This document shows, one piece after another, positions 321 to 62,590 of a stretch of 64,000 nt of DNA. The position numbers were made by a program, and so were the translations under genes. The notes under the pieces are model-generated. The model saw nothing but the letters and a program-made list of their open reading frames with translations. It had not been told where the DNA came from and searched no databases. Origin of the DNA: a virus (Duplodnaviria > Heunggongvirae > Uroviricota > Caudoviricetes); IMG/VR virus record IMGVR_UViG_2524614843_000001, positions 39,279 through 103,278 of that record; one strand, given 5' to 3'. Position 1 is the first letter of the stretch, and every line of letters starts with the position of its first letter.

Positions 321-411
321 ATTTCTTCACTCCTTGAATCAAATTCGGTAAGTCCTCGCTGATATAAGTCAGCGGTGACTTACCATAATACCATGAGAAA
401 TGTAGGGCAAA

Positions 412-1275
412 TCAATCGGCAGATTGAGACAAGGCAGCGCTAATGCGAGCCATGCCTTTACCTACCTCGGGTTGTTTGTTGCCTTTATTCAGCTGGCCAT
501 CCGAATTAGAGCCGGCGCCTGGCTTGATTTTCGAGCGCAGCAGAGTGTCCTTATCGGCATCACCCTCGACGATTTTCTTGAGGGCAACGTCAAACGCCAG
601 CGAACTACCGGTGGCGTCAACCAGCGGAGCACGGCCTGCAGCGCCGCGAGGCTTGTCATAGGCAACAATGCTGCCGCTTTCATCCAGATCGAAATGAGCG
701 CCATACAGCGCGCGGGTTTTAGCCGGCGTCAGCACCAATTCGTCACGGATGAAGGCGGAATTGGAGAACGCAGCGCCTACGGTTAGCTCGTTAATCGTGG
801 CTTGAGCGCTCTGCAGCTGCTCAGTCAAGCTGGTGATCTGCTGATCACGCTTGCCGAGCTCTTCCTGATGCGCTTTCACCATGTTGCCCTTGAGCTTGTC
901 GAACTCGCCTGCGGCAGCAAGACGTTCATCTTCGGCTTTGCGCTGATCTTCGAGCATTTTGCGTACCGCTGCGGGGTCAATGCCCTCGAACGCCTTGAGT
1001 TGCTCTTTCAGACCAGAAATTTCGTCCTGAGCCTTTTTCAAGTCGCCCTTCTTCTGCATCACCTCTTGCAGCAGCTTCGCTTCGCTGTCGGTCGGCTTTT
1101 TATCGCTCTTACCGGAAGCATCATCGTTTTTGCCGTCATCAGTCTTGCCACCAGTGTTGTCGTTGGCGTTGCCACCATTGCCACCACCGGAGCCACCGCC
1201 CAAGTCATTCCCGTTACCATCGTTTGCGTCCAGCAGGCGATGCAGACGGAATTGAGCCAACAGTCGTTTATTCAT
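412..1275 (-). CDS. Head scaffolding protein (coiled-coil, G/N/D-rich low-complexity segment)
   Basis: 287 aa, long K/E-rich coiled-coil stretch and Gly/Asn/Asp low-complexity run; sits between portal and capsid genes. Confidence 0.5.
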   Translation of the reverse strand: MNKRLLAQFRLHRLLDANDGNGNDLGGGSGGGNGGNANDNTGGKTDDGKNDDASGKSDKKPTDSEAKLLQEVMQKKGDLKKAQDEISGLKEQLKAFEGIDPAAVRKMLEDQRKAEDERLAAAGEFDKLKGNMVKAHQEELGKRDQQITSLTEQLQSAQATINELTVGAAFSNSAFIRDELVLTPAKTRALYGAHFDLDESGSIVAYDKPRGAAGRAPLVDATGSSLAFDVALKKIVEGDADKDTLLRSKIKPGAGSNSDGQLNKGNKQPEVGKGMARISAALSQSAD

Positions 1276-1341
1276 TGCGTTTTCCTTTGGCCAGTCTCTC
1301 GGCCGATTAAAAGCCAGCAGTTCTCTTAGCTGGGTTGAAGG

Positions 1342-2904
1342 TTAAGAGCCGTTGTTTTCAACGGTCGAACTACCCTGCTGATTCGAGCCCTGACCCAGCG
1401 GGCGAGGGTCAAGGCCGTCAGCAGGCCCACTTTTGCCACCGAAGCCCGGCAGGCTAACCAAGCTTTTTGGCCAGTCCTTTTCGATGGCATCAATGATCTT
1501 TTTGCGCTTCACAACCGATAGCTGCGGATAGAGCTTATCTACCAGGCGCTCCAGTTGATGCCGGCGCAATTCGTCCGGCGCGTCCAGATCTTGCAGGCGA
1601 GTCGCAATATCGAGCTCATCCACCAGACCGCGCGTATCGAAGGTTTCCGGATAGGTCACAAGGTTCTCGCTCACTTCTTTGCTGTGATAAGCGGATACCA
1701 AGCGACAAATTTGGTTTTCAGCCAGCTCAAGCGCATCTGCCTTGGAGACCAGCAGTGCATTCACACGCTCGAAGTCGAAGGCCTTGGCCACGCCCGAGCT
1801 GTTGTCGATGCCCATTGAGTTATCAGATTTGGTGCGCTCACCCGCCAATCCGACAGAGTGGTAGATCTCGTTGATGATCTTGGAGATCACATCGAGAATC
1901 ACATTTGCCTGTTTGGCATCAGGGCTGATGTATTTAGGCTCGCCGCCGTGCTCGCCGTCGTAGGTAAACACGCGCTTGGTGCCGGCATCTACCAGCTTGC
2001 TGTAACCCTCATCACCAGGCAGCAGGCCTTGAGCTGGCATTACCAGCTGGCTAAAGGTCTGGTCCTGAATGATGGCGTCCAGATTCGACAGATAGTTCGC
2101 AACGGCACGGTCGAGATAGGCAATGTCATCAATCAGGCCTGGCGATGAGTACGAGCGCACATGCGAAATCATGTGGTCGAGGAATACCACCGGCACTTTG
2201 CCAATTGAAACTTCACCGCCATCGACAGTGAAGTTGCCAGTTGGCGCCCCTTTGCTATCCAGCTCGGGCTTAATCAGATACCAGTTGTTCTTTGTCCAGA
2301 GGCGGAATCGCTCATGGACGAGGCCGGACGACGTGAAGGGGTCAGCATCATCACGCCCATGCTCACGGAGCAGCACCCAGCTAAGCTCGCCGGCCTCGTC
2401 CCAAGCGAAATCGAGAATATCCTCGACACTCACAAAGTAGGCATACACTGTGTTGCCAAGCTGCTTTTCCTCGGCCAAATTGGCGGGCTTTGGTGTTTCG
2501 GCACCCACTCGGCTATCCACCACAATGGCGACGCGACCACCAATCGAGCTCAGCAGCGAGCCTTGGCGCATAAATTCGTCGATACCCAGGCCTGAGCCAT
2601 TTACGCTCTTCCAAAAGGCCTTCACAAACTCCGGCGCATCAGTAGCGCGCTCAGGTAATTTCTTGAAGAGGTACTTGTTGACCAGATCAGAAACTTCCTT
2701 GGTGTGATTGAAGCGATAGGCACGCGCAATACGCTGCCGAAATTCGTGCTTACCCTCTTTGTGGTAAGTGAAAATGTGCTTCTTAAACCACTCGCGGCCA
2801 CCCTCATAGGTTTCGCGCAGAAAACCCCAATGCTTAATCAGCTTGGCGTATTCCGGATGGCGTCTTTTACTGATGGTTGAAATTTGTTCTTGTGAGTACG
2901 ACAT
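1342..2904 (-). CDS. Portal protein (putative)
   Basis: 520 aa, immediately downstream of large terminase and upstream of scaffold; size and position typical of portal. Confidence 0.55.
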   Translation of the reverse strand: MSYSQEQISTISKRRHPEYAKLIKHWGFLRETYEGGREWFKKHIFTYHKEGKHEFRQRIARAYRFNHTKEVSDLVNKYLFKKLPERATDAPEFVKAFWKSVNGSGLGIDEFMRQGSLLSSIGGRVAIVVDSRVGAETPKPANLAEEKQLGNTVYAYFVSVEDILDFAWDEAGELSWVLLREHGRDDADPFTSSGLVHERFRLWTKNNWYLIKPELDSKGAPTGNFTVDGGEVSIGKVPVVFLDHMISHVRSYSSPGLIDDIAYLDRAVANYLSNLDAIIQDQTFSQLVMPAQGLLPGDEGYSKLVDAGTKRVFTYDGEHGGEPKYISPDAKQANVILDVISKIINEIYHSVGLAGERTKSDNSMGIDNSSGVAKAFDFERVNALLVSKADALELAENQICRLVSAYHSKEVSENLVTYPETFDTRGLVDELDIATRLQDLDAPDELRRHQLERLVDKLYPQLSVVKRKKIIDAIEKDWPKSLVSLPGFGGKSGPADGLDPRPLGQGSNQQGSSTVENNGS

Positions 2905-2932
2905 ATCTGCACCTAAACCTTAACAATATTAA

Positions 2933-2951
2933 ATCACCTGTGACTTATTTA
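2933..2951 (-). promoter_or_regulatory. Class-A intergenic motif copy (aTCAcctgTGACTTATTTA on plus)
   Basis: Between terL stop and portal start; matches consensus GTCA-N4-TGACTTACTTA. Confidence 0.5.
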
Positions 2952-4879: not shown

Positions 4880-4913
4880 AATAAAAAAAGGGGCAGCGTT
4901 TTACCGCCGCCCC
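4880..4913 (-). terminator. Hairpin plus U-tract (minus-strand sense) 14 nt upstream of terS ATG
   Basis: GGGGCAGCG-ttttac-CGCCGCCCC stem preceded on plus by A8 (U-run on minus transcript). Confidence 0.45.
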
Positions 4914-4988
4914 TTGCACAAACAGGAACCGAACAAGTCTCGCTAAACGCACGACTTGGTTTCATATTACGGCGTTTTAATAACATAA

Positions 4989-5006
4989 GTCAACAGTGAC
5001 TTACTA
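4989..5006 (-). promoter_or_regulatory. Class-A motif copy; its TTGACT half-site plus TAATAT 18 bp downstream form a sigma70-like promoter reading toward terS
   Basis: Minus strand reads TAGTAAGTCACTGTTGACTtatgttattaaaacgccgTAATAT. Confidence 0.45.
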
Positions 5007-5008
5007 TC

Positions 5009-5141
5009 TAATCCGGAGTAGATCGTGGATAGGTAGAAGTTGGGAATTTTTATGCTTTCCAATATTTATTAACTACAGATAGATAGAAAGATAATATCTA
5101 TTGGAGCGTCAAGATTTTCCCAACTCAACCTCTCCGGATTA
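5009..5141. repeat. Nested inverted-repeat element, copy 1 (TAATCCGGAG...GTTGGGAA...CCAATA-[AT-rich core TTAACTACAG + GATAGATAGAAAG]-TATTGG...TTCCCAAC...CTCCGGATTA)
   Basis: Three concentric inverted-repeat pairs around an AT-rich core; second copy at 17699-17860. Confidence 0.7.
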
Positions 5142-7737: not shown

Positions 7738-7740
7738 TAT

Positions 7741-7759
7741 GTCACCTGTGACTTACTTA
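7741..7759 (-). promoter_or_regulatory. Class-A motif copy (GTCAcctgTGACTTACTTA); includes stop codon of ParB-1 and ends 3 nt before ParB-2 ATG
   Basis: Minus reads gcTAAGTAAGTCAcagGTGACataATG. Confidence 0.55.
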
Positions 7760-8427: not shown

Positions 8428-8454
8428 TCCCTTATCCGTCCTGCTAAAATGTTA

Positions 8455-8474
8455 GTCATCGATGACTTATCATA
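8455..8474 (-). promoter_or_regulatory. Class-A motif copy (perfect palindrome AGTCATCGATGACT + TATCATA) in divergent region between ParB operon and helicase
   Basis: GTCAtcgaTGACTTATCATA; oriented toward ParB-1. Confidence 0.5.
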
Positions 8475-11419: not shown

Positions 11420-11639
11420 GATCGCTTCCGTTTGTGTTGATTTCGACGTACCCGCGCTTGAGGCGCTTTTTCGAGTACGTGTTGGCGAGCGCAGTTGCTT
11501 CTGCCAAGGAGGATACAACTTGGCTTCGCTCTCCGTGAATTTTATTTTTGCGCCCGCCCCAACGACGAATGACCACTAGATCAAATAGGTCACGGTCGAT
11601 CTCAATTCGATACCAACGATCTTCGCTTTGGAAAAGCAT
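11403..11639 (-). CDS. Small protein, possible WGR-domain protein
   Basis: 78 aa; W..Y......D.....RRWGGR...... pattern reminiscent of WGR domain; weak. Confidence 0.35.
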   Translation of the reverse strand: MLFQSEDRWYRIEIDRDLFDLVVIRRWGGRKNKIHGERSQVVSSLAEATALANTYSKKRLKRGYVEINTNGSDHDNRR

Positions 11640-11661
11640 GGCGTTTCTCCGTAGAGGTGAA

Positions 11662-13889: not shown

Positions 13890-13923
13890 TTTTCGATTCC
13901 TTGTGATTTGATTTAGTTAAACA

Positions 13924-13942
13924 GTCATTGCTGACTTATCTA
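13924..13942 (-). promoter_or_regulatory. Class-A motif copy (GTCAttgcTGACTTATCTA) upstream of foreign gene
   Basis: Motif match. Confidence 0.5.
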
Positions 13943-26072: not shown

Positions 26073-26213
26073 GACTGGTTACTTCGCGTGAAACTCGATG
26101 CGTGTATTGTGCAACTCAATTCGCGGCAAATAATAAGTCAGCGCGGACTGATTAACAAGCCCCAATTTATGCCCTTGGCACTAGGAAAAACCTGAATAAA
26201 TAGAAAGGCAGAA

Positions 26214-28079: not shown

Positions 28080-28357
28080 GATGTGCAGTAGCCGTCGTAC
28101 TCACTGGCGTAACCCTTGCCGCAGCGACAAATCAAGCTGCCTGTGCGTGTGCTGCGCACAATTCGACGCCGATCTGCAGGCGGCACAATTCGATCGCCAG
28201 TTCGATCTGAGTACCGCTTGGCCTGCATTTCGTCCTCGAACAGTATTGAGCTCGCCATCCGGCCAGGCTTATCCGAGACGCACTTCCACTTGTAGGGATG
28301 CGGCACCCATAAGTCATTCAGCGATGACTGATTTTGCTGTTGATGCCAAGTGCTCAT
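28058..28357 (-). CDS. Hypothetical protein with C-terminal Cys4 zinc-ribbon
   Basis: CRCG...CTSC. Confidence 0.45.
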   Translation of the reverse strand: MSTWHQQQNQSSLNDLWVPHPYKWKCVSDKPGRMASSILFEDEMQAKRYSDRTGDRIVPPADRRRIVRSTRTGSLICRCGKGYASEYDGYCTSCREKRK

Positions 28358-31129: not shown

Positions 31130-31437
31130 GCCGCCACCCCGCTCACTGAGTCAGGCACCCGCATCCAGCATTGAATCCAGACCGCATCATGGGCTTCACT
31201 CACAACGGCATCGTCATCGACGGCGATATGATCTTCTGCCATCAAACGACCGATTTTGATTTCCTTCTCGGTAGCCTGGCGCCGGCCAACTTGGGCGTTG
31301 TGTATCTTCACGATATGAATTGCATCGTCGAGGTCCATCGGGCCAGCAACAAGACAACCTTCTTCATCCAGCACAACGCCACGCTTGAAGGGCTCGCCGG
31401 TTTTGATTTCGTCATAAGACCAACGTGATTCGTTCAT
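31126..31437 (-). CDS. Hypothetical protein (103 aa)
   Basis: ORF. Confidence 0.5.
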   Translation of the reverse strand: MNESRWSYDEIKTGEPFKRGVVLDEEGCLVAGPMDLDDAIHIVKIHNAQVGRRQATEKEIKIGRLMAEDHIAVDDDAVVSEAHDAVWIQCWMRVPDSVSGVAA

Positions 31438-31488
31438 AACTCACCTATTACTAACTTTGGTTAATGGGAAATAGGGCGATATTGGCTG

Positions 31489-34550: not shown

Positions 34551-34751
34551 TTAAAGTACCCATGTGAAGGTTTTGAACAAATCGATAGCGACAATGAGCG
34601 CTATCACTACAGCGGCAGTCGCCAGTAGAGCCAGAGCTAGGTTTTTCAGGACACTCAGGCTCTTATTGGCCACGCCTTTGCGCTTAAAGCTGCTGGCGAC
34701 AATCCAGCCCAGGCTCAAAAGCACAATGAGAACGAGGAAGCCTCTAATCAT
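34551..34751 (-). CDS. Small 2-TM membrane protein immediately upstream of SPFH gene (NfeD-like partner?)
   Basis: 66 aa, two hydrophobic helices; ATG lies inside class-A motif. Confidence 0.45.
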   Translation of the reverse strand: MIRGFLVLIVLLSLGWIVASSFKRKGVANKSLSVLKNLALALLATAAVVIALIVAIDLFKTFTWVL

Positions 34752-34760
34752 GTCATCACT
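34742..34760 (-). promoter_or_regulatory. Class-A motif copy (GTCAtcacTGACTTACTTA); contains stop of upstream gene and start ATG of downstream gene
   Basis: Minus reads gcaTAAGTAAGTCAgtgaTGACATGatt. Confidence 0.55.
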
Positions 34761-34767
34761 GACTTAC

Positions 34768-35049
34768 TTATGCGGCGATGCTTTCAGACTTCTTTTTCGG
34801 GCCGCGCGGCGCACCAAAAGTCACTTTCAGCGCTTCCTGCAGCTCGTCGCCAATGGCAGCGAGACGAGTGGCCAACACTTCCGGAGTGATTGCGCCTGTG
34901 TCAGAGTCGGCAAACACCTTTTCAGCCAGTAGGCCTTGCAGGTTTTCAGTGCGCTTCACCTTCTTGCTGTGCTTCACAGCTTCGGCATGTGATGGGTGGT
35001 GTGAGCCATCGATGGCTTTGAACATTTGAACTTTAGCGATACCGGTCAT
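34768..35049 (-). CDS. Hypothetical protein (93 aa)
   Basis: TGGAGT RBS. Confidence 0.5.
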   Translation of the reverse strand: MTGIAKVQMFKAIDGSHHPSHAEAVKHSKKVKRTENLQGLLAEKVFADSDTGAITPEVLATRLAAIGDELQEALKVTFGAPRGPKKKSESIAA

Positions 35050-35751: not shown

Positions 35752-35813
35752 CTTTTCAGTTCCTTGTTTGAGTTAGTCAGTAATTAGATGATGCGTTTTA
35801 TTGTCCGGCGTAT

Positions 35814-35832
35814 GTCATCTATGACTTACTTA
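35814..35832 (-). promoter_or_regulatory. Class-A motif copy (GTCAtctaTGACTTACTTA)
   Basis: Motif match; preceded by 12-bp-stem hairpin 35839-35876 and another copy at 35882-35899. Confidence 0.55.
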
Positions 35833-35881
35833 TTGACGGGCTACCATGCAGCCAGCCATAACTTGATCGGCTGCATGGTAA

Positions 35882-35899
35882 TTCAGTTATGACTTACTA
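35882..35899 (-). promoter_or_regulatory. Class-A motif copy (tTCAgttaTGACTTACTA) abutting thyX stop
   Basis: Motif match. Confidence 0.45.
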
Positions 35900-36823
35900 T
35901 CAAGAGGCAAATAAAAGCGCATCGATAATTTCTTTGCGCTCGCGTTTGCCCAAGCCATTGTCGGCCAATCGAGCCTCGAGCATTTCGTAAAGGTCGTTCT
36001 CGGCCAAAATTTCGTGCAGGGTATTCCGCGCGGTACGCGACAGCTGAATCGAGTGCAGGCGGTATTCCTCGAAGGCCGCATAGGTCTCCGGTACCCACAG
36101 CTTCACGAAGTCGGCAATGGCGTTCGCATAGACGCGCACCTCGTATTGAGCGTGCGAGTGCATCCGGAGGCGCAGGAAGTGCAGCAGGTTGTGCAGATCG
36201 CACTTCCAGTACCATTCCGTGTAAATGTTGATTGGCAGAACGGTACGAGCCAATTCACGCGCCACGCCGTCGGCAAGCGTTTTCTCATAAGCCTGGTAGG
36301 CCTCGTCGCTCAGGTGCGCCGCAACTTGCAGGAACTCGTGCGCCTTTTCCAGCGGCAGGCTGTCACCGCGACCCTGCTTGTTGTCGGTGGACTGCAGGCA
36401 GATCTGCTCCGGCTCGGGCAGGTAGAACTCGTCACGCAGGACGGAGTAGCGGGCGCTGTATTCATTCAGGCTGGCAGTGCGATGCCGGATGACCTGGCGT
36501 GCAACGAAGATCGGCAGCTTCATGTGCAGCTTGATTTCGCAGCCCTCGAAAGGCGAGGTGTGGGCATGGCGCATCAGGTAGCGCAGCAAGTTCCGGTCGT
36601 CATTCACAGCTTTCGTGCCTTCACCGTAACTGGTCCGCGCCATCTGGACGACAGAGGCATCGTTACCCATGTAGTCGATCACGCGCACGAAGCCTTTATC
36701 GAGGCACCGCGTCGGCGTCAGCAGTACGTCCTCCAGCGCCGGCACGGTCGGGCGAAGCGTCGGTGATGTGGGGGCTTGGCGAGCTGCAAGGATTTGAGCA
36801 GTCTGTTCGGGAGTCATAAACAT
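35900..36823 (-). CDS. thyX: FAD-dependent thymidylate synthase ThyX
   Basis: ThyX signature RHRTASLNEYS (RHRxxxxxxxS). Confidence 0.85.
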   Translation of the reverse strand: MFMTPEQTAQILAARQAPTSPTLRPTVPALEDVLLTPTRCLDKGFVRVIDYMGNDASVVQMARTSYGEGTKAVNDDRNLLRYLMRHAHTSPFEGCEIKLHMKLPIFVARQVIRHRTASLNEYSARYSVLRDEFYLPEPEQICLQSTDNKQGRGDSLPLEKAHEFLQVAAHLSDEAYQAYEKTLADGVARELARTVLPINIYTEWYWKCDLHNLLHFLRLRMHSHAQYEVRVYANAIADFVKLWVPETYAAFEEYRLHSIQLSRTARNTLHEILAENDLYEMLEARLADNGLGKRERKEIIDALLFAS

Positions 36824-37385: not shown

Positions 37386-37440
37386 ATCTGCTCCTTGATT
37401 GATAACACTGACAGGATAAAGCGCATTCAGTGGGCATTAT

Positions 37441-37459
37441 GTCAGCCGTGACTTAATAA
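37441..37459 (-). promoter_or_regulatory. Class-A motif copy (GTCAgccgTGACTTAATAA)
   Basis: About 45 nt upstream of RBS of 37173..37385. Confidence 0.5.
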
Positions 37460-38889: not shown

Positions 38890-38910
38890 GTTGTGTTTTC
38901 CTCTACGTTA

Positions 38911-38930
38911 GTCATCGATGACTGACTAAT
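38911..38930 (-). promoter_or_regulatory. Class-A motif copy (GTCAtcgaTGACTgACTAAT)
   Basis: Palindromic core AGTCATCGATGACT identical to copy at 8455. Confidence 0.5.
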
Positions 38931-40518: not shown

Positions 40519-40650
40519 ATTGGAATCCTCCTGTATTGTGCCTTGTGGATAGAGCAGAGAAGCAAACCGATGCTTCAAGCTCGTCATAGTTATTTATTGC
40601 CGCAGAAAAAAAACAGCCCAAAATGGGCTGTTTTTCTGCTCTGCAAGGCC

Positions 40651-42975: not shown

Positions 42976-43013
42976 AAATAACAGCCTTTCTTATTAAATA
43001 ACGTGTGACTTAC

Positions 43014-43598
43014 CTACTTTTTATTAAAAAAAGAGGTAGCCATCGCCGTTGCGCTCTTGAACTGTTCGGTTATAACACCTGCGTTAATAACCCCCACCGA
43101 ATCGGCCAAATGCTCGTTTTTGCCGAGCAATTCGATCTGCCCCTTGTACTTCCGCGTGAGCCAGGGAAGCGAAGGGTACCGATCAACGGCCCAATCGATG
43201 ATCTCCTTTTTCGTTGCGTTTCGTTTTCCAACCGTGACCATTTTGACCTCTTCCTCTTTCACTTCGATTAGAGGCAAATCTAGTCCGGCCAGAATGCCGA
43301 CCACAATCCCGAATGACTTGGCAGCAGACGCGCTTTGCCCTCCGGTTGGCACTTCTGCGATCAGCATTGACGCTTGGGTGTGTTGAATGTACTGACGCAC
43401 ACCCTGCACAATCTCCCGAGCGCACCGCAAATCATCGCTATTACGGCGCACCTTTTTGCTGTTATCACGCTCGGTTTCAATCAAGCGTAGATCATGTAAT
43501 GTAAGTTGCCCGTTACTTAGGTCGTAACTGGCATGACTCAATCCTACATTGCGAAAAGCTGCATCGATTCCAACGATGCTTAACTGGTGATGAAACAT
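43014..43598 (-). CDS. RuvC-like Holliday-junction resolvase
   Basis: IVGIDAAFRNVGL (RuvC motif I), IAEVP, ADSVGVINAG; start placed at MFHHQ. Confidence 0.6.
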   Translation of the reverse strand: MFHHQLSIVGIDAAFRNVGLSHASYDLSNGQLTLHDLRLIETERDNSKKVRRNSDDLRCAREIVQGVRQYIQHTQASMLIAEVPTGGQSASAAKSFGIVVGILAGLDLPLIEVKEEEVKMVTVGKRNATKKEIIDWAVDRYPSLPWLTRKYKGQIELLGKNEHLADSVGVINAGVITEQFKSATAMATSFFNKK

Positions 43599-43653
43599 GG
43601 CGATATTATTCTGTAACAATCAAATGTAAGCAAACCTGCCTGGCAAATATTAT

Positions 43654-43672
43654 GTCATTGATGACTTACTTA
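43654..43672 (-). promoter_or_regulatory. Class-A motif copy (GTCAttgaTGACTTACTTA)
   Basis: In 370-bp AT-rich gap upstream of resolvase gene. Confidence 0.55.
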
Positions 43673-48672: not shown

Positions 48673-48678
48673 TAGTCA

Positions 48679-48698
48679 GTCAGTCCTGAGTTAATAAC
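48679..48698 (-). promoter_or_regulatory. Degenerate class-A motif copy (GTCAgtccTGAgTTAATAAC), 7 nt upstream of hydrolase ATG
   Basis: 17/20 identical to copy at 37441. Confidence 0.35.
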
Positions 48699-49515: not shown

Positions 49516-49610
49516 GTGAGGCTCCTAAGTTGGTTGAGTAAGAAGTCCCAATCAAGGGAGAAGAAGAGGGCGAGCCCCAGCCCGCCCATAACTTTGAAGA
49601 GGGCGCACAT

Positions 49611-49913: not shown

Positions 49914-49930
49914 GGTTCTCTCCTTTGCTA

Positions 49931-49949
49931 ATTCACCACTTACTTACTT
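49931..49949 (-). promoter_or_regulatory. Degenerate class-A motif copy (TTCAccacTTACTTACTTA)
   Basis: Between lysozyme stop and membrane protein start. Confidence 0.4.
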
Positions 49950-50436
49950 AAACGGGCAATAAAAATAGCTGACGCTCGGCGGTACGACGGCGCACCAGTC
50001 CAGGCTGACGCTTACCCATTGCAAAAACCCACTTGTTAAACTCCTCCGCGGCCTTGTAGTAGTTACCGGAATTGAGGTGACGGAGCAGGGTGCTATCGCC
50101 CAATCCTTCCGCGATGTTGTCCTGATCAATATCCGGACCCACATTGAAGGTGAAGGATACGATGGCGTCGAACTGGTTCTGATTCAGAGGAACGCGAACC
50201 AGCTTGAGTACCGCCTTCTCAATTCTCAACAAGTCCTTGTCGAAGATTTCTTCGGCTTGAGCGGCGGTTATCCCTTTCATCATCCACTCGTCGCCAGCTT
50301 CAATCTTGTGGCCCCAGCCTATCGTCCAGTATCCGGCCGGACACTTATAAGGCTTTAAGGCCACCTGATCGGATTGCTCAAATTTCTTAATGATCGCTCG
50401 GCCGCGCTGACCGGTTCTCATCGCAGTGCTTGCCAT
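49948..50436 (-). CDS. Glycoside hydrolase family 24 lysozyme (T4/lambda-type endolysin)
   Basis: Start at MASTAM with AGGAGG RBS; FEQ...YKCPAGYWTIGWGH, GL..RR..E..LF motifs. Confidence 0.75.
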   Translation of the reverse strand: MASTAMRTGQRGRAIIKKFEQSDQVALKPYKCPAGYWTIGWGHKIEAGDEWMMKGITAAQAEEIFDKDLLRIEKAVLKLVRVPLNQNQFDAIVSFTFNVGPDIDQDNIAEGLGDSTLLRHLNSGNYYKAAEEFNKWVFAMGKRQPGLVRRRTAERQLFLLPV

Positions 50437-50458
50437 TAAATCCTCCTGCTTATCTATA

Positions 50459-50478
50459 GTCACTGATGACTTACTTTA
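50459..50478 (-). promoter_or_regulatory. Class-A motif copy (GTCActgaTGACTTACTTTA)
   Basis: Upstream of lysozyme. Confidence 0.55.
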
Positions 50479-51292: not shown

Positions 51293-51341
51293 CGACTTCA
51301 ATTTTCTCCACACATACCTCCTGCAAGGGCGCAAATAATAT

Positions 51342-51360
51342 GTCAGCGCTGACTATTAAA
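51342..51360 (-). promoter_or_regulatory. Class-A motif copy (GTCAgcgcTGACTATTAAA)
   Basis: Perfect palindrome core. Confidence 0.45.
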
Positions 51361-53087: not shown

Positions 53088-53108
53088 GAAAGATAGATAG
53101 ATAGAAAG
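53088..53108. repeat. Class-B motif copy AGAAAGATAGATAGATAGAAAG
   Basis: GATA-repeat family. Confidence 0.6.
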
Positions 53109-53114
53109 ACAGAG

Positions 53115-53141
53115 CAACAGAAAACCCCGCGCAGGGCGGGG
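53115..53141 (-). terminator. Terminator after recA-like gene (CCCCGC-gcagg-GCGGGG + TTTTCTGTT on minus)
   Basis: Hairpin plus T-rich tail. Confidence 0.6.
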
Positions 53142-53154
53142 TTCTTGGTTAGGC

Positions 53155-55097: not shown

Positions 55098-55120
55098 AGT
55101 GCCGGCGCTTGGCCGGCACT
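55098..55120 (-). other. Perfect hairpin GTGCCGGC-caagc-GCCGGCAC + TTTTCTCT between class-A motif and RBS
   Basis: Either a terminator or a 5'-terminal mRNA stem-loop. Confidence 0.5.
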
Positions 55121-55122
55121 AT

Positions 55123-55146
55123 GTCACCTATGACTTACTTACTTAA
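55123..55146 (-). promoter_or_regulatory. Class-A motif copy, extended (GTCAcctaTGACTTACTTACTTAA); supplies TAA stop of SSB gene
   Basis: Best consensus match. Confidence 0.6.
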
Positions 55147-56096: not shown

Positions 56097-56171
56097 TTTC
56101 AGATTCTCCGATTTAAAAAGTGCGCTATGCGCAAAGGTTTAAAAGTGTGATTGCTCACGTTTAAATTATAA

Positions 56172-56190
56172 GTCACCTGTTACTTATTTT
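56172..56190 (-). promoter_or_regulatory. Class-A motif copy (GTCAcctgTtACTTATTTT); minus strand continues TGACTTATAAT (TATAAT)
   Basis: Motif match. Confidence 0.5.
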
Positions 56191-56766: not shown

Positions 56767-58002
56767 CTAGTTCACAGCTTCCGCCACACGGCGGAATACT
56801 TCATTGAGCGTGGCTTGCTTGCTGTCATCGAACAGCACTTGACCAGGCGAAATGCCGACGATGATCGTGGCGTTGTACTTGGCCGAGAAAATGGCGGTAC
56901 CAGGCTCGGGCTTGCGCGCATCCGGCAGGAAGTAGCGGGTCGCGGCAGAGCCCAGCGTGACGATCACTGGCGGCGCCAGAATCTCGATCTCCCGCTCGAT
57001 GTACTGCGAGCAGGCGGCGATCTGTGCGTCGGCAAGGAACTTCTCGTCCTTCGGCTTGGGCGACTTCACCAGCGCAGTCCAATACCCGTTATCGAAGGTC
57101 AGATAGTTCACGCCCAGCGCGGTGCGGGTTACATCCTCCATCGAGTCGGTCAGCACCTTGCCATTGCGCTCGTCACGGAAGCTTGGCGCGTCGATCACTG
57201 CCATGAACTTCGGCTGCCGACCGATGCGGGGCGACGGATGCACACCGCCCGCCAGTGAGCAGGCGGTGCATTGCTTGGCGTCGCGCAGAGTGATCATCAG
57301 CTTTTCCTTCACGAACTTGCCGGCTTCGATGTTGCGATCAGCCTTCACCACGCCGGAGATCAGGCCAGGCAACAGCTCGATCTGATCTTTCAGGCGCTCG
57401 TTGTGAAGTGCTGGAAGCTGTGAGGGTTCGATGCCGGCAAAGGCGCCGACACGATCAAGGCAGTCGCGCACTTTGACGTTGACCTTCGACTTGTTCACGC
57501 GCGCCTCGAAGTTCTCTTTCGAGGTGAATGGGCCAGCAGGCAACGCCTCGCATACCAGATTGCCCTTCTTGTCGAACTCTTCGACCTTTGCCGAATTGCG
57601 CGCCTGCACGATCAGCTCTGCAGTGGTGGTCGAGATACCCTTCACGCGATTGAAGGGCATAACCAGCGTGACTTTGCTGCGCGCCACGTCATAGCCGATC
57701 TCGAAGCGGTCAGCGCTGGAGAGGTTCACATCGGGCGGAACCAGCAGCAGACCGGCGTTCTCAGCGTCACGCACCAGACCAGGCAGCTTGTCCTCGTCCA
57801 GAACAGACAGACAGGCAGCGTAGAACTCAGCCGGATAGTTCACTTTCAGCCACATGGACTGATAGCTGATCAGCGAGTAGGCAACGGCATGACTTTTGTT
57901 AAAACCATAGGCGCCGAAGGCCATAATCTGACTCCAGAGAGCCTCTGCGTCCGCTTTGCTCATGCCGTTTTCGAGTACGCGGCTTGATACGATCTTGGCC
58001 AT
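56767..58002 (-). CDS. dnaE: DNA polymerase III alpha (DnaE) C-terminal fragment fused to a degenerate family-4 UDG-like domain
   Basis: GAYGFNKSHAVAYSLISYQ (DnaE fingers hallmark); C-terminal about 180 aa align to family-4 uracil-DNA glycosylase (CTACSL, VIVTLGSAATRYFL) but GEGPG motif is IDAPS and catalytic His replaced. Confidence 0.75.
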   Translation of the reverse strand: MAKIVSSRVLENGMSKADAEALWSQIMAFGAYGFNKSHAVAYSLISYQSMWLKVNYPAEFYAACLSVLDEDKLPGLVRDAENAGLLLVPPDVNLSSADRFEIGYDVARSKVTLVMPFNRVKGISTTTAELIVQARNSAKVEEFDKKGNLVCEALPAGPFTSKENFEARVNKSKVNVKVRDCLDRVGAFAGIEPSQLPALHNERLKDQIELLPGLISGVVKADRNIEAGKFVKEKLMITLRDAKQCTACSLAGGVHPSPRIGRQPKFMAVIDAPSFRDERNGKVLTDSMEDVTRTALGVNYLTFDNGYWTALVKSPKPKDEKFLADAQIAACSQYIEREIEILAPPVIVTLGSAATRYFLPDARKPEPGTAIFSAKYNATIIVGISPGQVLFDDSKQATLNEVFRRVAEAVN

Positions 58003-58004
58003 AG

Positions 58005-58175
58005 TCAGTTACTCCACCAGCCCTCGCGTTCGAGCGTCTCTTTGGCAATCTTGAGTGCTTCGGTGCGGGTCATTGTTGGATTCTCGCGCTGCAGCTGATT
58101 AGCCAATCGGGCTTCTTCCTGAATGACAGCTTCGCTGCGGCGGTTCAGTTTGTTGGTAAAGGTGTCCGTGTTCAT
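58005..58175 (-). CDS. Small ORF (56 aa) lying between the two dnaE pieces
   Basis: AAGGAAA RBS; stop 2 nt before DnaE-C ATG. Confidence 0.4.
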   Translation of the reverse strand: MNTDTFTNKLNRRSEAVIQEEARLANQLQRENPTMTRTEALKIAKETLEREGWWSN

Positions 58176-58235
58176 CGTGCGTTTCCTTTGTTTTCCTGAT
58201 TCTCACTTGGAATACTCGGGTCGCTGCGGGGCGTT

Positions 58236-58254
58236 AGTATGCGCTGACTTACTT
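58236..58254 (-). promoter_or_regulatory. Class-A motif copy, half-site degenerate (GTATgcgcTGACTTACTTT) inside the dnaE split
   Basis: Motif match. Confidence 0.4.
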
Positions 58255-58289
58255 TCAAGAGCAAGACCAAACGCCCGCAGGGCGTCCAG

Positions 58290-60656
58290 TTACAGGGCGA
58301 GCTCAACCCCGCGCGCAATCGCTTCCTCGACAGTCAGCAGTTCATCGCTATCCACCGCCTTGTACCGCGTTGCACGATGGACTGTGAGCGTCCTGCCGTC
58401 ATCGAGCGTGACTTCAATCTGACCGAGTTCAGCGCCGGAAATGAATGACGCGCCAATCTTGGCCATCTTGTCCATATCCTTCTTACCTATGGCCTTGCGG
58501 AGCCCGTCTGCGCCCGCCATCGTGAAGCCGCACAGATCTCGGGCGACCTGCATGACTTCCTCTTGGTACACGATGACGCCATAGGTATCCTTGAGCGCGT
58601 CCTCGCAGAGCGGGTGCGGATAGCTGACCGGCTCCAACCCTTGCTTGCGGGCGACAAACTGATCGAGCAGACCGGAATCCAGCGGGCCAGGACGATAAAG
58701 CGCCGTCGCTGCCGCAATATCCTCGAAGGTCAGCGCCTCGTAGCTCGCCAGATCTTTGAGCAGCTTCATCATGCCGCCCGACTCGAACTGGAACACGCCG
58801 ATGGTCTTGCCTTGCCCGAAGCCCTCCAGCGTGATCGTGTCATCGAGGGGCAGATCGAGCAGATCGGGCGTTTTGCCGTGCCGCTCCTTGATGTAGTCCA
58901 GAACCAGCGAAGTCAGATCGAGCGTGGTCAGCCCGAGAATATCCATCTTCACCAAGCCCATGTCCTCGACGGTGCGCTTGTCCCAATTCGTTGTCGGTTG
59001 GCCAGAGCGCATTTCCACGACCGCGCGCTCGTTGATCGGTACGCCGGCAATCACAATGCCTGCAGCGTGACGACCCAGCGACCGGTTGTGATCTTCCAGC
59101 GCCAGGGAATGCTGCCAGAGCTCCGGATAGCGCTCGGAATAGGTCTTAATTGCCCCGACTTGCTCAGCGGCTTCTGCCATCGGGGCGACCATGCCATGCT
59201 CTTTCGGGTAGAGCTTCGTGCATTCCAGATCGCCATTTGGTACCTCGAACACGCGACCCACATCACGGATTGCAGAGGCGCCGGCCAGCGTCGTGAAGTT
59301 GGAGATGCCCGCCACGTAATCAGCACCGAATTTCTCGGTAATGTGGTTGATGACGAGCTCGCGGCGAGTGGCCTGAAAATCCAAGTCCGCGTCAGGCAAG
59401 TCCAGACGTTCTGGATTGATGAAGCGCTCGAAAATCAGACCGTGCCGGATAGGGTCAACATCCGTGATACCGAGCAGGAAAGCGACCAGAGAACCACCCA
59501 CGGAACCCCGACCTGGCCCGACAGCGACGCCGTTTTGTTTCGCCCAGCGGGTGATGTAGCGCGCCAGCAGGAAGTAGCCGCAGAAGCCCAGCTTGGACAG
59601 CACGCCAAGCTCGTATTTGAGCCGCTCCATGTAATGCGGGAGATCTGCCTTGCTCGGCTTGTAGCCGAAGGAGGAGCCCTCAACCAGACGCTCGACAAAG
59701 GCGCGCTTACATAGCTCAACCAGCGCCAACTCTTCCTTCTCGACGAGTTTGGGTAATGACACTGGCCATTTTGACCAGGTGTAATCACACATACTCTCGA
59801 CAACCGCCATGTTCCTGATTGCACCCTTGAGCCGCTCCATATCAAGCGCCTCATCGAACAGCTTGAGATAGGTCTCGCCAAAGGCTTTGCATTCCGCGGC
59901 GAACTCCGCAGGACTGAGGATGCTCAGGTTGCCGGAGATCTGCGAAGGCGCAATCCGCCAGCCATCCTTCATCTTGTTGTTGCTGCACACAGCCGCGTAC
60001 ACATCGAGGGAGTTACTTTGTGACGGGTCTGCTAGCAGCGCAGGGCGCGTCGCTACGACCGGTATACCCGTTGCGTGGGCATATCCGAGCACATCGCGGC
60101 CAATGCGCGCAAACAGCGGATTATTGACGACAGGAAGCTCAATAAAGAGCGCGTGGGGCTGCGCAGCCCGCAGTTTGTCCAGACGCTCATAAGCTGTCGC
60201 TTGATCGACTTTGTAGAGCGCGCCCAGCAGATCACCAGTCATCACGACCAGACCATCCGGTGCAGACGCGATATGCTCCAGCACCTCGTCGAAACTGAGG
60301 CGCGGGAAGTAGTAGAAGTGGCTTTCCGAGTTAGCGAGGCTCAGCAGCTTGAAGATCGCCTTGAGCCCGCTTTCGTTACGTACCAACAACCGCAAAGTGA
60401 ATGAGCGCGGACGCTTCACCTCTGCAGATTTCTCGGTCGGGTCACACAGCACGACCTCAACTGTCACGCCGATGATTGGCTTGATGCCGGCGTCCTTCGC
60501 TGCAGTCATCAGCGCCGGCATTCCTGAGACGGTCATCTTGTCCGTAATGGCAATGGCCGTCAGTCCCTTCTCGACCGCCTGCGCCACCGCTTTCTTTACT
60601 GATAGCAGTGAGCCGCCAATCGTGAAGTCACTACGCACACCAAGAGCAACTTTCAT
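58290..60656 (-). CDS. dnaE: DNA polymerase III alpha (DnaE) N-terminal fragment (PHP, palm, thumb, part of fingers)
   Basis: 788 aa; PHP domain start MKVALGVRSDF, palm motifs; homology ends about 40 aa before stop. Confidence 0.8.
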   Translation of the reverse strand: MKVALGVRSDFTIGGSLLSVKKAVAQAVEKGLTAIAITDKMTVSGMPALMTAAKDAGIKPIIGVTVEVVLCDPTEKSAEVKRPRSFTLRLLVRNESGLKAIFKLLSLANSESHFYYFPRLSFDEVLEHIASAPDGLVVMTGDLLGALYKVDQATAYERLDKLRAAQPHALFIELPVVNNPLFARIGRDVLGYAHATGIPVVATRPALLADPSQSNSLDVYAAVCSNNKMKDGWRIAPSQISGNLSILSPAEFAAECKAFGETYLKLFDEALDMERLKGAIRNMAVVESMCDYTWSKWPVSLPKLVEKEELALVELCKRAFVERLVEGSSFGYKPSKADLPHYMERLKYELGVLSKLGFCGYFLLARYITRWAKQNGVAVGPGRGSVGGSLVAFLLGITDVDPIRHGLIFERFINPERLDLPDADLDFQATRRELVINHITEKFGADYVAGISNFTTLAGASAIRDVGRVFEVPNGDLECTKLYPKEHGMVAPMAEAAEQVGAIKTYSERYPELWQHSLALEDHNRSLGRHAAGIVIAGVPINERAVVEMRSGQPTTNWDKRTVEDMGLVKMDILGLTTLDLTSLVLDYIKERHGKTPDLLDLPLDDTITLEGFGQGKTIGVFQFESGGMMKLLKDLASYEALTFEDIAAATALYRPGPLDSGLLDQFVARKQGLEPVSYPHPLCEDALKDTYGVIVYQEEVMQVARDLCGFTMAGADGLRKAIGKKDMDKMAKIGASFISGAELGQIEVTLDDGRTLTVHRATRYKAVDSDELLTVEEAIARGVELAL

Positions 60657-61255
60657 CGCAGATAAATCCCATTTTTTTGTTTGATACCGAAGAAACGCAG
60701 CAAGGCACAGGCAATACTTGCACTCGATTTCGCCGAGTTTTCTGTCATGCCCTGCTGAATGAGTGCCTGATTGAGTTCGGCCTGGCGGAAGCCGCCATTG
60801 CCGATCAGTAATGCGCAGGCGATACGCATAAATTTCGGACCTTCACCCTCAAAAGGGTTTTTTGACTGTGACAAGTCACCTATTACGTCAATACCGCGTC
60901 GCAGGATGGCTCGAGCTTCACGCTGAGCCTTGACCGGTAATGAGCTAATCAAGCGCTCTTCCTCAATGGTGAGCTTGTAGTCAAAACGAAGCGGCATCTG
61001 TCCGGCCGCACGAATTTCCGGCACATGCACCGCGCCCAGCTCTCCAGATGACTCAGGCCGCATTGGCGCAAAACCCTCTCTGCGATGCGACTTGTTGGCT
61101 CGATCAATCAACGCTTGGACAGGCGCACCTTCGAGCACAATCTTGCTACCCACCTCTAATGCAATGCCGGCGCATTCAGCCCGCAGAGCGCAGCTTTGAC
61201 AGCGAGCACCCTGCGGGTCATAGGTGACAATCGAACCAAAACAACCTGGCTTCAT
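60653..61255 (-). CDS. Hypothetical protein with N-terminal Cys4 zinc finger
   Basis: CFGS...CQSCALRAEC; ATGA overlap with dnaE. Confidence 0.5.
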   Translation of the reverse strand: MKPGCFGSIVTYDPQGARCQSCALRAECAGIALEVGSKIVLEGAPVQALIDRANKSHRREGFAPMRPESSGELGAVHVPEIRAAGQMPLRFDYKLTIEEERLISSLPVKAQREARAILRRGIDVIGDLSQSKNPFEGEGPKFMRIACALLIGNGGFRQAELNQALIQQGMTENSAKSSASIACALLRFFGIKQKNGIYLR

Positions 61256-61264
61256 TATTACTAG

Positions 61265-61284
61265 CTCACCTATGACTTACTTAC
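61265..61284 (-). promoter_or_regulatory. Class-A motif copy (cTCAcctaTGACTTACTTAC); contains stop codon of AAA+ gene
   Basis: Motif match. Confidence 0.55.
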
Positions 61285-62549
61285 TCACCGAAATAGCGCT
61301 GAGCAACAGCAGTTGCAACCTCAGAATCAACGCCACCCAAGCGGTTGATGTACGTCTGACGCGCAGCAAGCATGAATGAACCGCGCTTTTTGCCAATGTC
61401 GGCAAGCTCTTGAACTACCCGCGTTGAGATTGGGGCGCCAATTTTGCCCTTCGTGTATGAGTCACGAATATCGTTGGCGAAATCCACGATCTTGGTTGCA
61501 TCTTCTTTGGTTACGCCGATGCGTGACACCACCAGCGCAACTTCGGCCTGCTTCTCCATATACGGCACATTTTCGACGATAGCAAAGCGCTCCATACTGG
61601 CTGCGTTCTGAATCTTCGTGCCGGCATACAGACCAGACTCATCGCCAGAGCCGTTGGTGTTGCCAGTAGCAACAAAGCGGAAATTTGGATGAGGGCGAAC
61701 AACACGCCAACCGGAAGTCTCAGGCGCTTCCTTGATGATCAGAGGTTTGCCCTCGAGCACTGCCTGGTACGTGGCGATAATGTCGGACTGCGCAAAGTCA
61801 TACTCGTCGGCGCAGTAAACCCAACCGTGCTTCATCGCCAACGGCAAGAGGCCTGGCTCAAAGTAGGTTCCGCTTTCGTTAGCGAGCAGCTGACCGACAA
61901 TCGCAGCAGACTCGGTATCGCCAGCGTGCTGCACGCGAATGTAGGGGCGATTGGTGCGAGCGCAGACTTGCTCGTATAGGGATGACTTGCCGACGCCCGA
62001 GTGGCCCCACAAGTAAATGCGCTTGTTGTTTTCCAGCGCGAAGAGCACCGTTTTCAGCAGGTCAATTGAGTACACGTAGTCGTGGTCAATGAAAGGGATG
62101 TGCTCTTCATATTCGGCCTGGCGAGCCTGCACAGTCACCTTGATAGGTTCGCCCCGTCCATTCATTGCGGCCTTTACACGCCCCAACTCAAACAACTCAT
62201 GCAGATTCGCGGTAGTCTCCCGACCAAATGGCAAGACTTTCGCTGAGCTCTTTTCGACCGCTGCACCTGCCATTTCAACGCTGAGTGGCGCTGCAGCGGG
62301 TTTTGATGATTCGGTCGAGGCCGCAGCTGGAGCAGCACGACGAGCAAGCGCTTCTTTTGCCATTTCGGACAGCGTTGGCGCGTCCGGATAGGCAGAGGTA
62401 TACGCTGCTTCTGCCGCGACAGTATCGCCACCGACGATCTTGTGAGCATCCATTGCAGTTTGATCGCCAGCTTTTGCAATTTCGCGCAGGTGCAAACGGA
62501 TAGAGTGAACTTCTGCGCCGCATACGCGGCAGGTGATTTTGTCAGACAT
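61281..62549 (-). CDS. AAA+ ATPase, MoxR/CobS-like
   Basis: Walker A LWGHSGVGKSSL, Walker B YCADEYDF; N-terminal CxxC. Confidence 0.75.
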   Translation of the reverse strand: MSDKITCRVCGAEVHSIRLHLREIAKAGDQTAMDAHKIVGGDTVAAEAAYTSAYPDAPTLSEMAKEALARRAAPAAASTESSKPAAAPLSVEMAGAAVEKSSAKVLPFGRETTANLHELFELGRVKAAMNGRGEPIKVTVQARQAEYEEHIPFIDHDYVYSIDLLKTVLFALENNKRIYLWGHSGVGKSSLYEQVCARTNRPYIRVQHAGDTESAAIVGQLLANESGTYFEPGLLPLAMKHGWVYCADEYDFAQSDIIATYQAVLEGKPLIIKEAPETSGWRVVRPHPNFRFVATGNTNGSGDESGLYAGTKIQNAASMERFAIVENVPYMEKQAEVALVVSRIGVTKEDATKIVDFANDIRDSYTKGKIGAPISTRVVQELADIGKKRGSFMLAARQTYINRLGGVDSEVATAVAQRYFGE

Positions 62550-62572
62550 AGCGGTTCCTTGTGCGTGATTGA

Positions 62573-62590
62573 TAGTAAGTCATAACTGAC
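62573..62590 (+). promoter_or_regulatory. Class-A motif copy in inverted orientation (TAGTAAGTCAtaacTGAC on plus)
   Basis: Only copy whose TAAGTA flank is on the plus strand. Confidence 0.45.

Follow-up and report, generated by a model that had tools for sequence, protein, structure and literature searches.

Gene content and relatives of the element

We analyzed a stretch of 64,000 nucleotides (the window) that forms the last 64 kb of a 103-kb element of Chitinibacter tainanensis (IMG/VR record IMGVR_UViG_2524614843_000001, positions 39,279 to 103,278) and in which a short motif recurs in the gaps between genes. The DnaE protein encoded in the window is identical to a C. tainanensis protein, and the next best DnaE is 50% identical. 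The gene content is typical of a large siphophage or phage-plasmid and includes genes for a terminase, a portal protein, two ParB-like proteins, a helicase, a ribonucleotide reductase, SbcCD, RecA, a gp32-like single-strand DNA-binding protein (SSB), a 5'-3' exonuclease, a split DnaE, and CobS. Distant kin are SSU5/pMT1, Rhizobium phage RHEph10, and Pseudomonas phage nickie, with DnaE proteins that are 38-45% identical. SSU5-like phage-plasmids and related ones that encode DnaE are widespread among proteobacteria, and they bear cargo for resistance and virulence.

With a Logan contig of identical sequence, the window could be extended by 9.6 kb beyond its start into head and tail genes, and we read the resulting 73.6 kb with gene calls based on open reading frames (ORFs). 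Close relatives for footprinting were found neither in INPHARED nor in the PLSDB and GTDB genomes; the exact motif is absent from IMG/VR, and a scan of metagenomes yielded mostly single chance matches.

An oriented motif in the intergenic gaps

The consensus of the motif on the minus (gene) strand comprises 22 bases, T-w-A-R-TAAGTCA-N4-TGAC-w-TA. An iterated weight matrix located 29 copies in the 73.6 kb, 25 of them in the window and four in the extension, where they follow the capsid gene, surround the tail genes, and immediately precede the tape-measure gene. At threshold, the matrix gave 30 matches as compared with 0.54 in block shuffles. The plus-strand pattern GTCA-N4-TGACTTACTTA, searched with up to two mismatches, had 16 matches against 0.07 expected, and TAAGTAAGTCA-N4-TGAC occurred on the minus strand five times exactly and 13 times with up to two mismatches; the plus strand had no exact match and three with up to two mismatches, each of them a palindromic echo. 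TAAGTCA is the most over-represented intergenic word, and 19 of its 22 occurrences on the gene strand fall into the 14% of the sequence that is intergenic; of the 65 gaps of at least 15 nt, 24 carry a copy. Nearly all copies are intergenic. All 22 copies listed in the original prediction, which had been made from the letters of the window alone, are real, although the one placed at 34742 has its true position at 34752-34770. Three copies had been left out of that list (31437-31458, 26134-26155, and a weak one at 28314-28335).

The TAAG extension at the upstream end of the motif lies upstream of minus-strand genes in 26-27 of the 29 copies, a count that is partly circular since the weight matrix was trained on forward-aligned copies; the asymmetry of the sequence logo (positions 1-4 compared with positions 23-26) is independent of this circularity. 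The copies therefore follow the minus-strand gene array, as had been proposed, but the additional claim that no copy serves a plus-strand gene is not strictly true, because the copy at 8452-8473 lies 17 nt upstream of the start of the plus-strand helicase gene.

The weight matrix found no copy between 14 and 26 kb of the window. This zone contains a PemK-family toxin gene (16253-16597) and a plus-strand gene for a DUF4136 lipoprotein (19549-20190); toxin- and lipoprotein-type functions are typically expressed by a resident plasmid. Small ORFs without assigned function and two large paralogous ORFs (446 and 474 amino acids) without a family match are also found there.

The motif is a dyad in DNA

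The logo of 28 aligned copies reads TwAR-TAAGTCA-nnGn-TGACwTA and holds about 27 bits of information. Its core is an imperfect 7-4-7 dyad, TAAGTCA-N4-TGACTTA, of 18 bp with half-site centers 11 bp apart, to which the TAAG-like extension adds 4 nt on the upstream side only. Of the two arms, the left one is more strictly kept: A7 is present in 28 of 28 copies, its partner T20 in 18. No -35 element is visible in the logo, and positions 23-27 each carry less than 0.4 bit. Upstream of the motif there is only a weak T-rich tract; this T-rich/TTGCC tract (-15 to -5) was rejected as an element of its own since it holds 0.2-0.6 bit per position and is, several times, the tail of an upstream terminator.

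The two arms do not vary as the two sides of a hairpin would. In the seven possible base pairs, 81.1% of the cells were paired, compared with 81.2% in shuffles; the covariation score of the arms was 0.037 compared with 0.040 in shuffles; and an A-A mismatch occupies the fifth pair in one third of the copies. Deviations in the two arms are thus independent, which argues for recognition by sequence, half-site by half-site. Moreover, the stem is A+T-rich and, unlike an intrinsic terminator, not followed by a T-run. We rejected an RNA hairpin model because of the lack of covariation, and a known RNA family because an Rfam search of the window gave no match. Dyad symmetry, 18 bp within a range of about 14-18 bp, and half-sites about one helical turn apart fit the format of XRE/434-type operators. 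A dyad core is expected for the site of a dimeric DNA-binding protein, and it counts against a promoter for a phage RNA polymerase or sigma factor.

Stop and start codons at the gene junctions

The stop codon of the upstream gene falls at motif positions 1-9 in 10 of the 29 copies, and the next start codon at positions 20-95. In at least seven copies the start codon is at positions 20-29, with a Shine-Dalgarno sequence AGGTGA(G) made from N4 and the right arm; these tight junctions include the copies at 61283, 7759, and 31458 and the copy before the tape-measure gene. At these junctions, the adjacent gene could not be expressed from a transcript begun 3' of the motif. A downstream transcription start is consequently ruled out at those copies, which suits a binding site. 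The overlaps with stop and start codons that led to the motif being described as a codon junction are real; as a function they do not hold, since they are not conserved in the relatives, where the stops shift to the right arm or vanish. They are a by-product of packing.

Conservation of the dyad in distant relatives

At sense-oriented junctions of seven distant relatives with DnaE proteins 42-50% identical to that of the window, AGTCA-N4-TGACT ranks first among dyads or is strongly enriched. Counted with up to one mismatch and with overlapping matches merged, it occurs 9 times in locus L078 (0.2 expected), 10 times in L079 (0.6), 4 times in L081 (0.3), 9 times in L084 (0.2), 8 times in RHEph10 (0.6), 8 times in L093 from Chromobacterium sp. 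(0.3), and 10 times in L094 (0.7). Copies are kept at orthologous junctions, e.g., upstream of CobS and of a gene for a 200-amino-acid protein beside DnaE. The AGTCA-N4-TGACT motif is missing from nickie and from L082. SSU5 has a variant of its own, TAAGT-N4-ACTTA, with 13 matches against 1.0 expected. The junction motif in the SSU5 stretch sampled (L091, record positions 25000-74999) reads AAAAA-TAAGTA-N2/3-(C)ACTTA(CTTA)T and has its doubled arm downstream, the opposite of the arrangement in the Chitinibacter element.

Four Rhizobium phages that are 80-95% identical share a junction composed of a terminator, CGTCTATC, taac, AGTCAGTCA-N4-TGACTGACT, a Shine-Dalgarno sequence, and ATG, in which the arms of the dyad are invariant and the loop is variable. 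Other junctions of the same phages have a GTCTAT box without the dyad, which makes the dyad an add-on at about +1 and not the promoter itself. In phages of the RHEph10 group (L090, L098, L099, and L100), a box (C/G)GTCTAT(T/C)C lies about 25-45 nt upstream of start codons and could be the promoter class of these phages' own sigma-like protein. Phages of the RHEph10 group also share a second palindrome, TCGCTAATTAGCGA or TTAGCGA...TCGCTAA.

A candidate for the DNA-binding protein

A conserved protein of 135-156 amino acids is encoded just upstream of CobT in all seven motif-bearing relatives (7/7), amid two to four clustered copies of the motif, and its gene heads the CobT-CobS-DnaE array. In L093 and L094 the gene stands beside ParA or integrase genes and is divergent from the lytic array. 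Homologues are named XRE-family regulators in their source databases, and some of them carry PF01381; compared with PDB, the profile of the family has its best, though weak, matches (E 0.02-0.1) in the DNA-binding domains of the phage 434 repressor and Cro. The gene was not found in L082, in nickie, or in the sampled SSU5 stretch.

Pfam and PHROGs scans of about 55 window ORFs revealed no regulator, and there was no Chitinibacter homologue of the XRE-like protein among the matches listed (at least 120). Judged by synteny, the regulator gene of this element should lie upstream of CobT, just past the contig end; the earlier suggestion that the binding protein is encoded outside the window is therefore probably correct.

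Promoter-like sites and terminators around the copies

Sigma-70-like promoters are depleted in the window (19 compared with about 36 expected). Ten promoter-like sites lie on the gene strand, and five of these ten overlap or abut a motif copy, with a sixth nearby (Table 1). The overlapping sites fall in four different registers; hence, there is no fixed sigma-70 register with the motif. The predicted registers are typical of repressor operators: the dyad lies in a 17-bp spacer (35903 and 26158) or at +1 (62628 and 8498), or its right arm forms the -35 (4993).

Strong terminators are found mostly in gaps without the motif. Inside co-directional arrays, strong intrinsic terminators lie at 40610-40633, 49568-49587, 53122-53143, 36851-36870, and 33715-33734; the next start codon is 20-50 nt away, and promoter-like sites are missing behind these terminators. 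Expression of the genes beyond would require read-through or antitermination. A G+C-rich hairpin begins 1-8 nt past the motif in four cases (55098-55141 and 35839-35900 in the window, 11887-11940 and 15851-15900 in L089); both hairpins noted previously, at 55098-55120 and 35839-35876, are thus present. A transcript starting about 10 nt after TGAC would begin within such a hairpin and would escape the terminator that stops transcripts coming from upstream.

Within 4888-4993, the strongest terminator of the region (4915-4888, an 11-bp stem with a T7 run) comes about 45 nt after the promoter-like TTGACT-18-TAATAT. A promoter and a terminator directly upstream of the small-terminase-like gene recall the lambda PR'-tR' arrangement, and this analogy hints at possible antitermination of the late operon.

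Several established types of sites were compared with the motif and rejected. For a sigma-54 site, no GG lies 10 nt ahead of the upstream TTGC; for a MerR-type promoter, the distance of 21-24 bp from the upstream TTGCC to the downstream -10 is too long. The right arm cannot serve generally as a -35, as there is no -10 located 17 nt downstream, the copy at 5007 excepted. A match of some copies to AGGTGACA, which would suggest an SP6/T7-like promoter, sits in the variable N4, and there is no RNA polymerase gene. IHF sites are not dyads, and their spacing differs by one from that of the motif.

Dispersed sites of a putative prophage repressor

We tentatively favor the view that the motif copies are the dispersed targets of a dimeric helix-turn-helix (HTH) regulator of the phage, probably acting as the prophage repressor. 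The sites, their dyad anatomy, their positions at gene junctions, their conservation, and their co-occurrence with a regulator gene are the observations from which we infer the identity of the binding protein, the sign of the regulation, and the roadblock effect. The 18-bp dyad would be shared by two monomers, each reading one TAAGTCA half-site, and the most likely binding protein would be the XRE/434-repressor-like protein of about 135-156 amino acids. In the plasmid-prophage state, this protein would occupy all sites. Where a site lies over a promoter, in its spacer, its -35, or at its +1, initiation would be blocked in the manner of an operator; where it lies in a tight junction of a gene array, the bound protein would form a roadblock to read-through transcription, like the stoperators of mycobacteriophages. 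Together, these effects would keep about 70 kb of lytic genes silent and leave the accessory zone at 14-26 kb free for expression.

Several points weigh against a repressor. The HTH assignment of the candidate is weak, with Pfam HTH_3 matches below threshold. Its gene did not turn up in the 73.6 kb read here, so that its link to the motif rests on the relatives, and the co-occurrence of gene and motif among these is confounded by phylogeny and by partial loci. In the alpha-proteobacterial relatives, the HTH gene is co-directional with the lytic genes, which is more like a Cro or an activator. If roadblocks formed at a symmetric site, it would not be evident why the TAAG extension is consistently on the upstream side. 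Finally, -10-like hexamers peak at motif positions 19-21, where they occur in 28 of 55 copies (window, L093, L094, and L078 combined). Within the window, 12 of 28 copies have such a hexamer, and so do 11 of the 19 with room for a leader, partly in start-codon contexts; most copies with the hexamer lack a -35. An activator-dependent promoter would account for this pattern no less well than a repressor site would. The downstream CATAAT/TATAAT noted originally corresponds to an enrichment of -10-like hexamers that is far from universal: three of the CATAAT are start-codon contexts (CATAATG), and 16 of the 28 window copies have no such hexamer.

Alternative explanations

The main competitor, which we consider unlikely, is an upstream element of an activator-dependent lytic promoter resembling the late promoters of P1. 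A phage factor bound to the dyad (at about -19.5) would replace the -35 and recruit the host sigma-70 polymerase to a -10 in or after the right arm, and the copies at tight junctions would be non-initiating or vestigial. Beyond the peak of -10-like hexamers, this explanation draws on the right arm in L094, which is systematically TGACTAT(AAT) and not the symmetric TGACTTA, on gene arrays that are nearly without sigma-70 consensus promoters, and on the four motif-hairpin cases, in which the predicted start would lie inside the hairpin and the transcripts, as judged from the sequences, would escape. The motif-free zone could then be an early region transcribed by the host. Furthermore, the P1 late promoters, whose box we extracted from P1 sequences as AAGTGACTT or AAGTTACTT, followed by 4 nt and the -10, have AAGT/ACTT half-sites in common with the motif. 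The spacing of these half-sites is, however, 8 nt here and 1 nt in P1, and a phmmer search with the P1 activator Lpa (PF25716) against all ORFs of the window, the extension, and 12 related loci had no match with E below 1. The start codons at positions 20-29, the CATAATG contexts, the window copies without a -10-like hexamer, and the low information at positions 23-27 all speak against an activator, as does the presence of the motif at replication as well as late genes. In the Rhizobium phages and in L084, moreover, the -10-like box precedes the dyad, so that the dyad falls at about +1.

It is rather improbable, though conceivable, that the dyad is one switchable element, serving as operator, stoperator, and promoter across alpha-, beta-, and gamma-proteobacterial phage-plasmids. 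An XRE-type regulator bound at nearly every lytic junction of the plasmid-prophage would act as an orientation-sensitive roadblock and as an operator; upon its removal or modification, the sites would fire together with the -10 as promoters lacking a -35 and would bypass the adjacent terminators, with transcription often starting inside the terminator hairpin.

Slightly less probable still is an element acting at the level of RNA or of the non-template strand, i.e., a hairpin with a UAAGUAAG tail in 5' leaders that would be read by a processing nuclease, a nut- or ops-like antitermination factor, or a regulator of translation. The motif is always sense-oriented in leaders, just upstream of the Shine-Dalgarno sequence and the start codon; in the relatives, the dyad begins at about the predicted +1; and the array-internal strong terminators that no promoter follows (40633-40610, 49587-49568, 53143-53122) suggest some mechanism of read-through. 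Against such an element stand the complete lack of compensatory changes, the A-A mismatch at the fifth pair, and the missing Rfam match. The loop is variable and the stem conserved, the opposite of a boxB-type pattern, and the copy at 8452-8473 serves divergent genes as a symmetric DNA site.

We regard as very improbable the earlier suggestion of a complete promoter for a phage sigma factor or RNA polymerase, despite an element that is long, rich in information, and oriented, the scarcity of host-type promoters, and a Sigma70_r2 protein that relatives encode between CobS and DnaE. A profile search of the 73.6 kb found no homologue of the RHEph10 sigma-like protein, and no ORF in it matches RNA polymerase families; the motif is present nonetheless. 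L082, on the other hand, has the sigma-like gene and no motif. Dyad symmetry is no property of sigma or T7-type promoters, and the tight-junction copies also argue against a promoter, as do the missing -35 and the lack of a fixed -10 in most copies. What remains of the suggestion is a phage-specific cis-regulatory family tied to transcription units.

Least probable of all is a non-transcriptional function in the DNA, in the form of strand-specific nick sites, loading sites of the ParB/KorB type, or boundaries of cassette recombination: each of the two ParB-like genes is preceded by a copy, a further copy lies in the gap that splits DnaE (with an HNH endonuclease gene at the equivalent position of L094), and some metagenome contigs carry dense arrays of the same dyad, but the conserved positions just before start codons at orthologous junctions of the relatives, the overlap with promoter-like sites, and the link to an HTH regulator gene all count against it.

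Comparison with known systems

Of the known systems, the L5 gp71 sites of Cluster A mycobacteriophages come closest to dispersed repressor sites. More than 20 of them are located at promoters and in short intergenic spaces, with an orientation that strikingly follows transcription, and their proposed role is to keep the prophage silent by obstructing initiation as well as elongation (PMC9283540). The Chitinibacter motif resembles these stoperators in copy number, location at junctions, orientation bias, and overlap with stop and start codons. However, the L5 sites are asymmetric 13-bp sequences bound by a monomer with two domains, while the 18-bp dyad here would suit a dimer and is asymmetric only in its 4-nt TAAG extension; hosts and phage lineages are unrelated.

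In P1, 11 late promoters carry the Lpa box (PMC10695390). Like the Chitinibacter element, P1 is a phage-plasmid, and its regulation involves many scattered sites; the AAGT/ACTT half-sites recur, and P1 late promoters have a -10 at a set distance and no -35. In addition to the different spacing of the half-sites, the hexamer lies 0-2 nt after TGAC here and 4 nt after the box in P1, a -10 is present in only about 40% of the copies, no PF25716 protein was found, and the motif is not restricted to late genes. The C1 operators of P1 are asymmetric 17-mers, unlike the dyad.

Cluster O mycobacteriophages, which have ParB-domain proteins, carry over 30 copies of the 17-bp TGTTCGG-N3-CCGAACA, many of them intergenic (PMC4351075). 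Both families are genome-wide 7-bp inverted repeats with a variable center in phages with ParB-like genes; in Cluster O, however, about one third of the copies lie in genes, there is no orientation bias, and the phages are not known to be temperate, whereas the copies here are almost all intergenic and oriented, in a relative of plasmid-prophages. Lambdoid and 434 operators likewise are dyads of 14-18 bp for CI/Cro-type HTH dimers, and in the relatives, copies cluster beside the regulator gene, in the space separating divergent genes. Lambdoid operators do not occur outside the immunity region, whereas most of the sites here are dispersed over tens of kilobases. With dispersed phage operator families known from P1 C1, L5, and Cluster O, the motif would be a dyad-symmetric, oriented variant in proteobacterial phage-plasmids.

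A search of the papers in the searchable library for the motif strings and for regulation in SSU5, nickie, and RHEph10 found no description of this family, nor did it find anything on how such phage-plasmids keep about 70-100 kb of lytic genes silent. The conserved site family and the co-occurring candidate regulator provide two handles on phage-plasmid regulation, and they open immunity, induction, and superinfection exclusion to direct testing in this group. If the roadblocks at tight junctions are real, genome-wide silencing of elongation would extend from actinophages to proteobacterial phage-plasmids, and would do so with a dimeric rather than a monomeric regulator.

Individual copies and further features

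The coordinates of the motif copies in the window and of the promoter-like sites next to them are compiled in Table 1.

Table 1. Motif copies in the window and promoter-like sites associated with them.
Feature	Position	Strand	Remarks
Copy upstream of CobS-like gene	62572..62593	+	TAAG extension on the plus strand in this copy alone; minus strand AAAGTCA-GTTA-TGACTTA
Copy filling the 25-nt gap between CobS-like gene and gene of the 200-amino-acid Cys4 protein	61262..61283	-	weight matrix; TAA stop at motif position 1, ATG at 29, Shine-Dalgarno AGGTGAG inside motif
Degenerate copy in the 287-nt gap splitting DnaE gene	58234..58255	-	weight matrix; preceded by terminator-like hairpin 58290-58266
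Copy upstream of gp32-like SSB gene	56169..56190	-	TATAAT at motif positions 21-26
Exact-consensus copy after SSB gene	55120..55141	-	terminator hairpin 55120-55098 directly after
Copy	51339..51360	-	TTGTTT at positions -2..4, TATTAT at 21-26; read off site sequence
Copy upstream of lysozyme gene	50456..50477	-	weight matrix
Copy after lysozyme gene	49929..49950	-	weight matrix; provides lysozyme stop codon
Degenerate near-symmetric copy upstream of 139-amino-acid and SbcD-like genes	48676..48697	-	weight matrix
Exact-consensus copy	43651..43672	-	weight matrix; end is TGACATAAT
Degenerate copy upstream of ribonucleotide reductase large-subunit gene	42995..43016	-	gives upstream stop codon
Near-symmetric copy upstream of 336-amino-acid gene (37879-38889)	38908..38929	-	gap beside plus-strand genes
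Copy in loop of 7-bp outer stem GGGCATT...AATGCCC	37438..37459	-	next ATG at position 23
Copy in 17-bp spacer of sigma-70-like promoter TTGATA-17-TACCAT	35879..35900	-	
Exact-consensus copy	35811..35832	-	68 nt downstream of 35879-35900, past hairpin 35876-35839
Exact-consensus copy	34749..34770	-	upstream stop at position 1, next ATG at 20
Copy absent from earlier list	31437..31458	-	ATG at position 22, Shine-Dalgarno AGGTGAG within motif
Weak copy absent from earlier list	28314..28335	-	19 nt past minus-strand gene; antisense to possible plus-strand ORF
Copy absent from earlier list, in spacer of sigma-70-like promoter TTGTTA-17-TATTAT	26134..26155	-	entrance to motif-free zone
Near-symmetric copy	13921..13942	-	exit of motif-free zone
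Near-perfect palindrome	8452..8473	-	62-bp divergent gap between ParB-like (minus) and helicase (plus) genes
Exact-consensus copy in 15-nt gap between two ParB-like genes	7738..7759	-	weight matrix; stop at position 5, ATG at 23, Shine-Dalgarno AGGTGA
Copy upstream of small-terminase-like gene	4986..5007	-	right arm TTGACT is -35 of promoter-like site
Copy between large terminase and portal genes	2930..2951	-	weight matrix
Copy upstream of capsid-region gene	365..386	-	start codon at window position 320, bulk of gene beyond window start
Promoter-like TCGACT-18-TATCAT	62628-62599	-	-10 ends 6 nt before AAGTCA
Promoter-like	35903-35875	-	dyad inside 17-bp spacer
Promoter-like	26158-26130	-	dyad inside 17-bp spacer
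Promoter-like	14011-13984	-	42 nt upstream of copy 13942
Promoter-like TTGATT-18-TATGAT	8498-8469	-	-10 abuts AAGTCA
Promoter-like TTGACT-18-TAATAT	4993-4964	-	right arm TTGACT is -35

The DnaE gene (56767-60656) is split into parts of 788 and 411 amino acids. Besides the terminator-like hairpin and the degenerate motif copy, the 287-nt gap between them (58003-58289) contains an ORF of 56 amino acids, and the HNH endonuclease gene at the equivalent split in L094 suggests a decayed homing-endonuclease insertion.

The 200-amino-acid protein encoded beside DnaE (60653-61255, minus strand) belongs to a family found at this place in all relatives, nickie included. It has an invariant C-X13-C-X2-C-X5-C, a spacing like that of WhiB-like Fe-S proteins (a PDB match to WhiB at E = 0.3 only), a conserved C-terminal domain, and a weak paralogue at 26303-27100. 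In many relatives a Sigma70_r2 gene precedes the gene of this protein; it is missing in the corresponding stretch of the Chitinibacter element.

Two metagenome contigs with few ORFs, L191 (about 11300-11830) and L201 (about 1890-1965), carry arrays of (T/A)AGTCA-N4-TGACT with 3-10 copies at a spacing of 20-75 nt, which look like iterons or a centromere. At the end of the window (63956-64000), a perfect tandem repeat of (TTCGGACTCGGG) x 3.8 runs up to the last base, which is the contig end; it could represent iterons or a break in the assembly.

Another family of intergenic repeats, (GCGA)TAGATAGATAGAAAG, occupies gaps that lack the motif and often lies just before start codons or after terminators. 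Its members are found at 37845-37861, 31486-31502, 30605-30621, 30052-30068, and 19089-19105 and, in inverted orientation, at about 53089-53104, 31547-31562, 26228-26243, and 5071-5086; the copies at 31562 and 31502 form an inverted pair.

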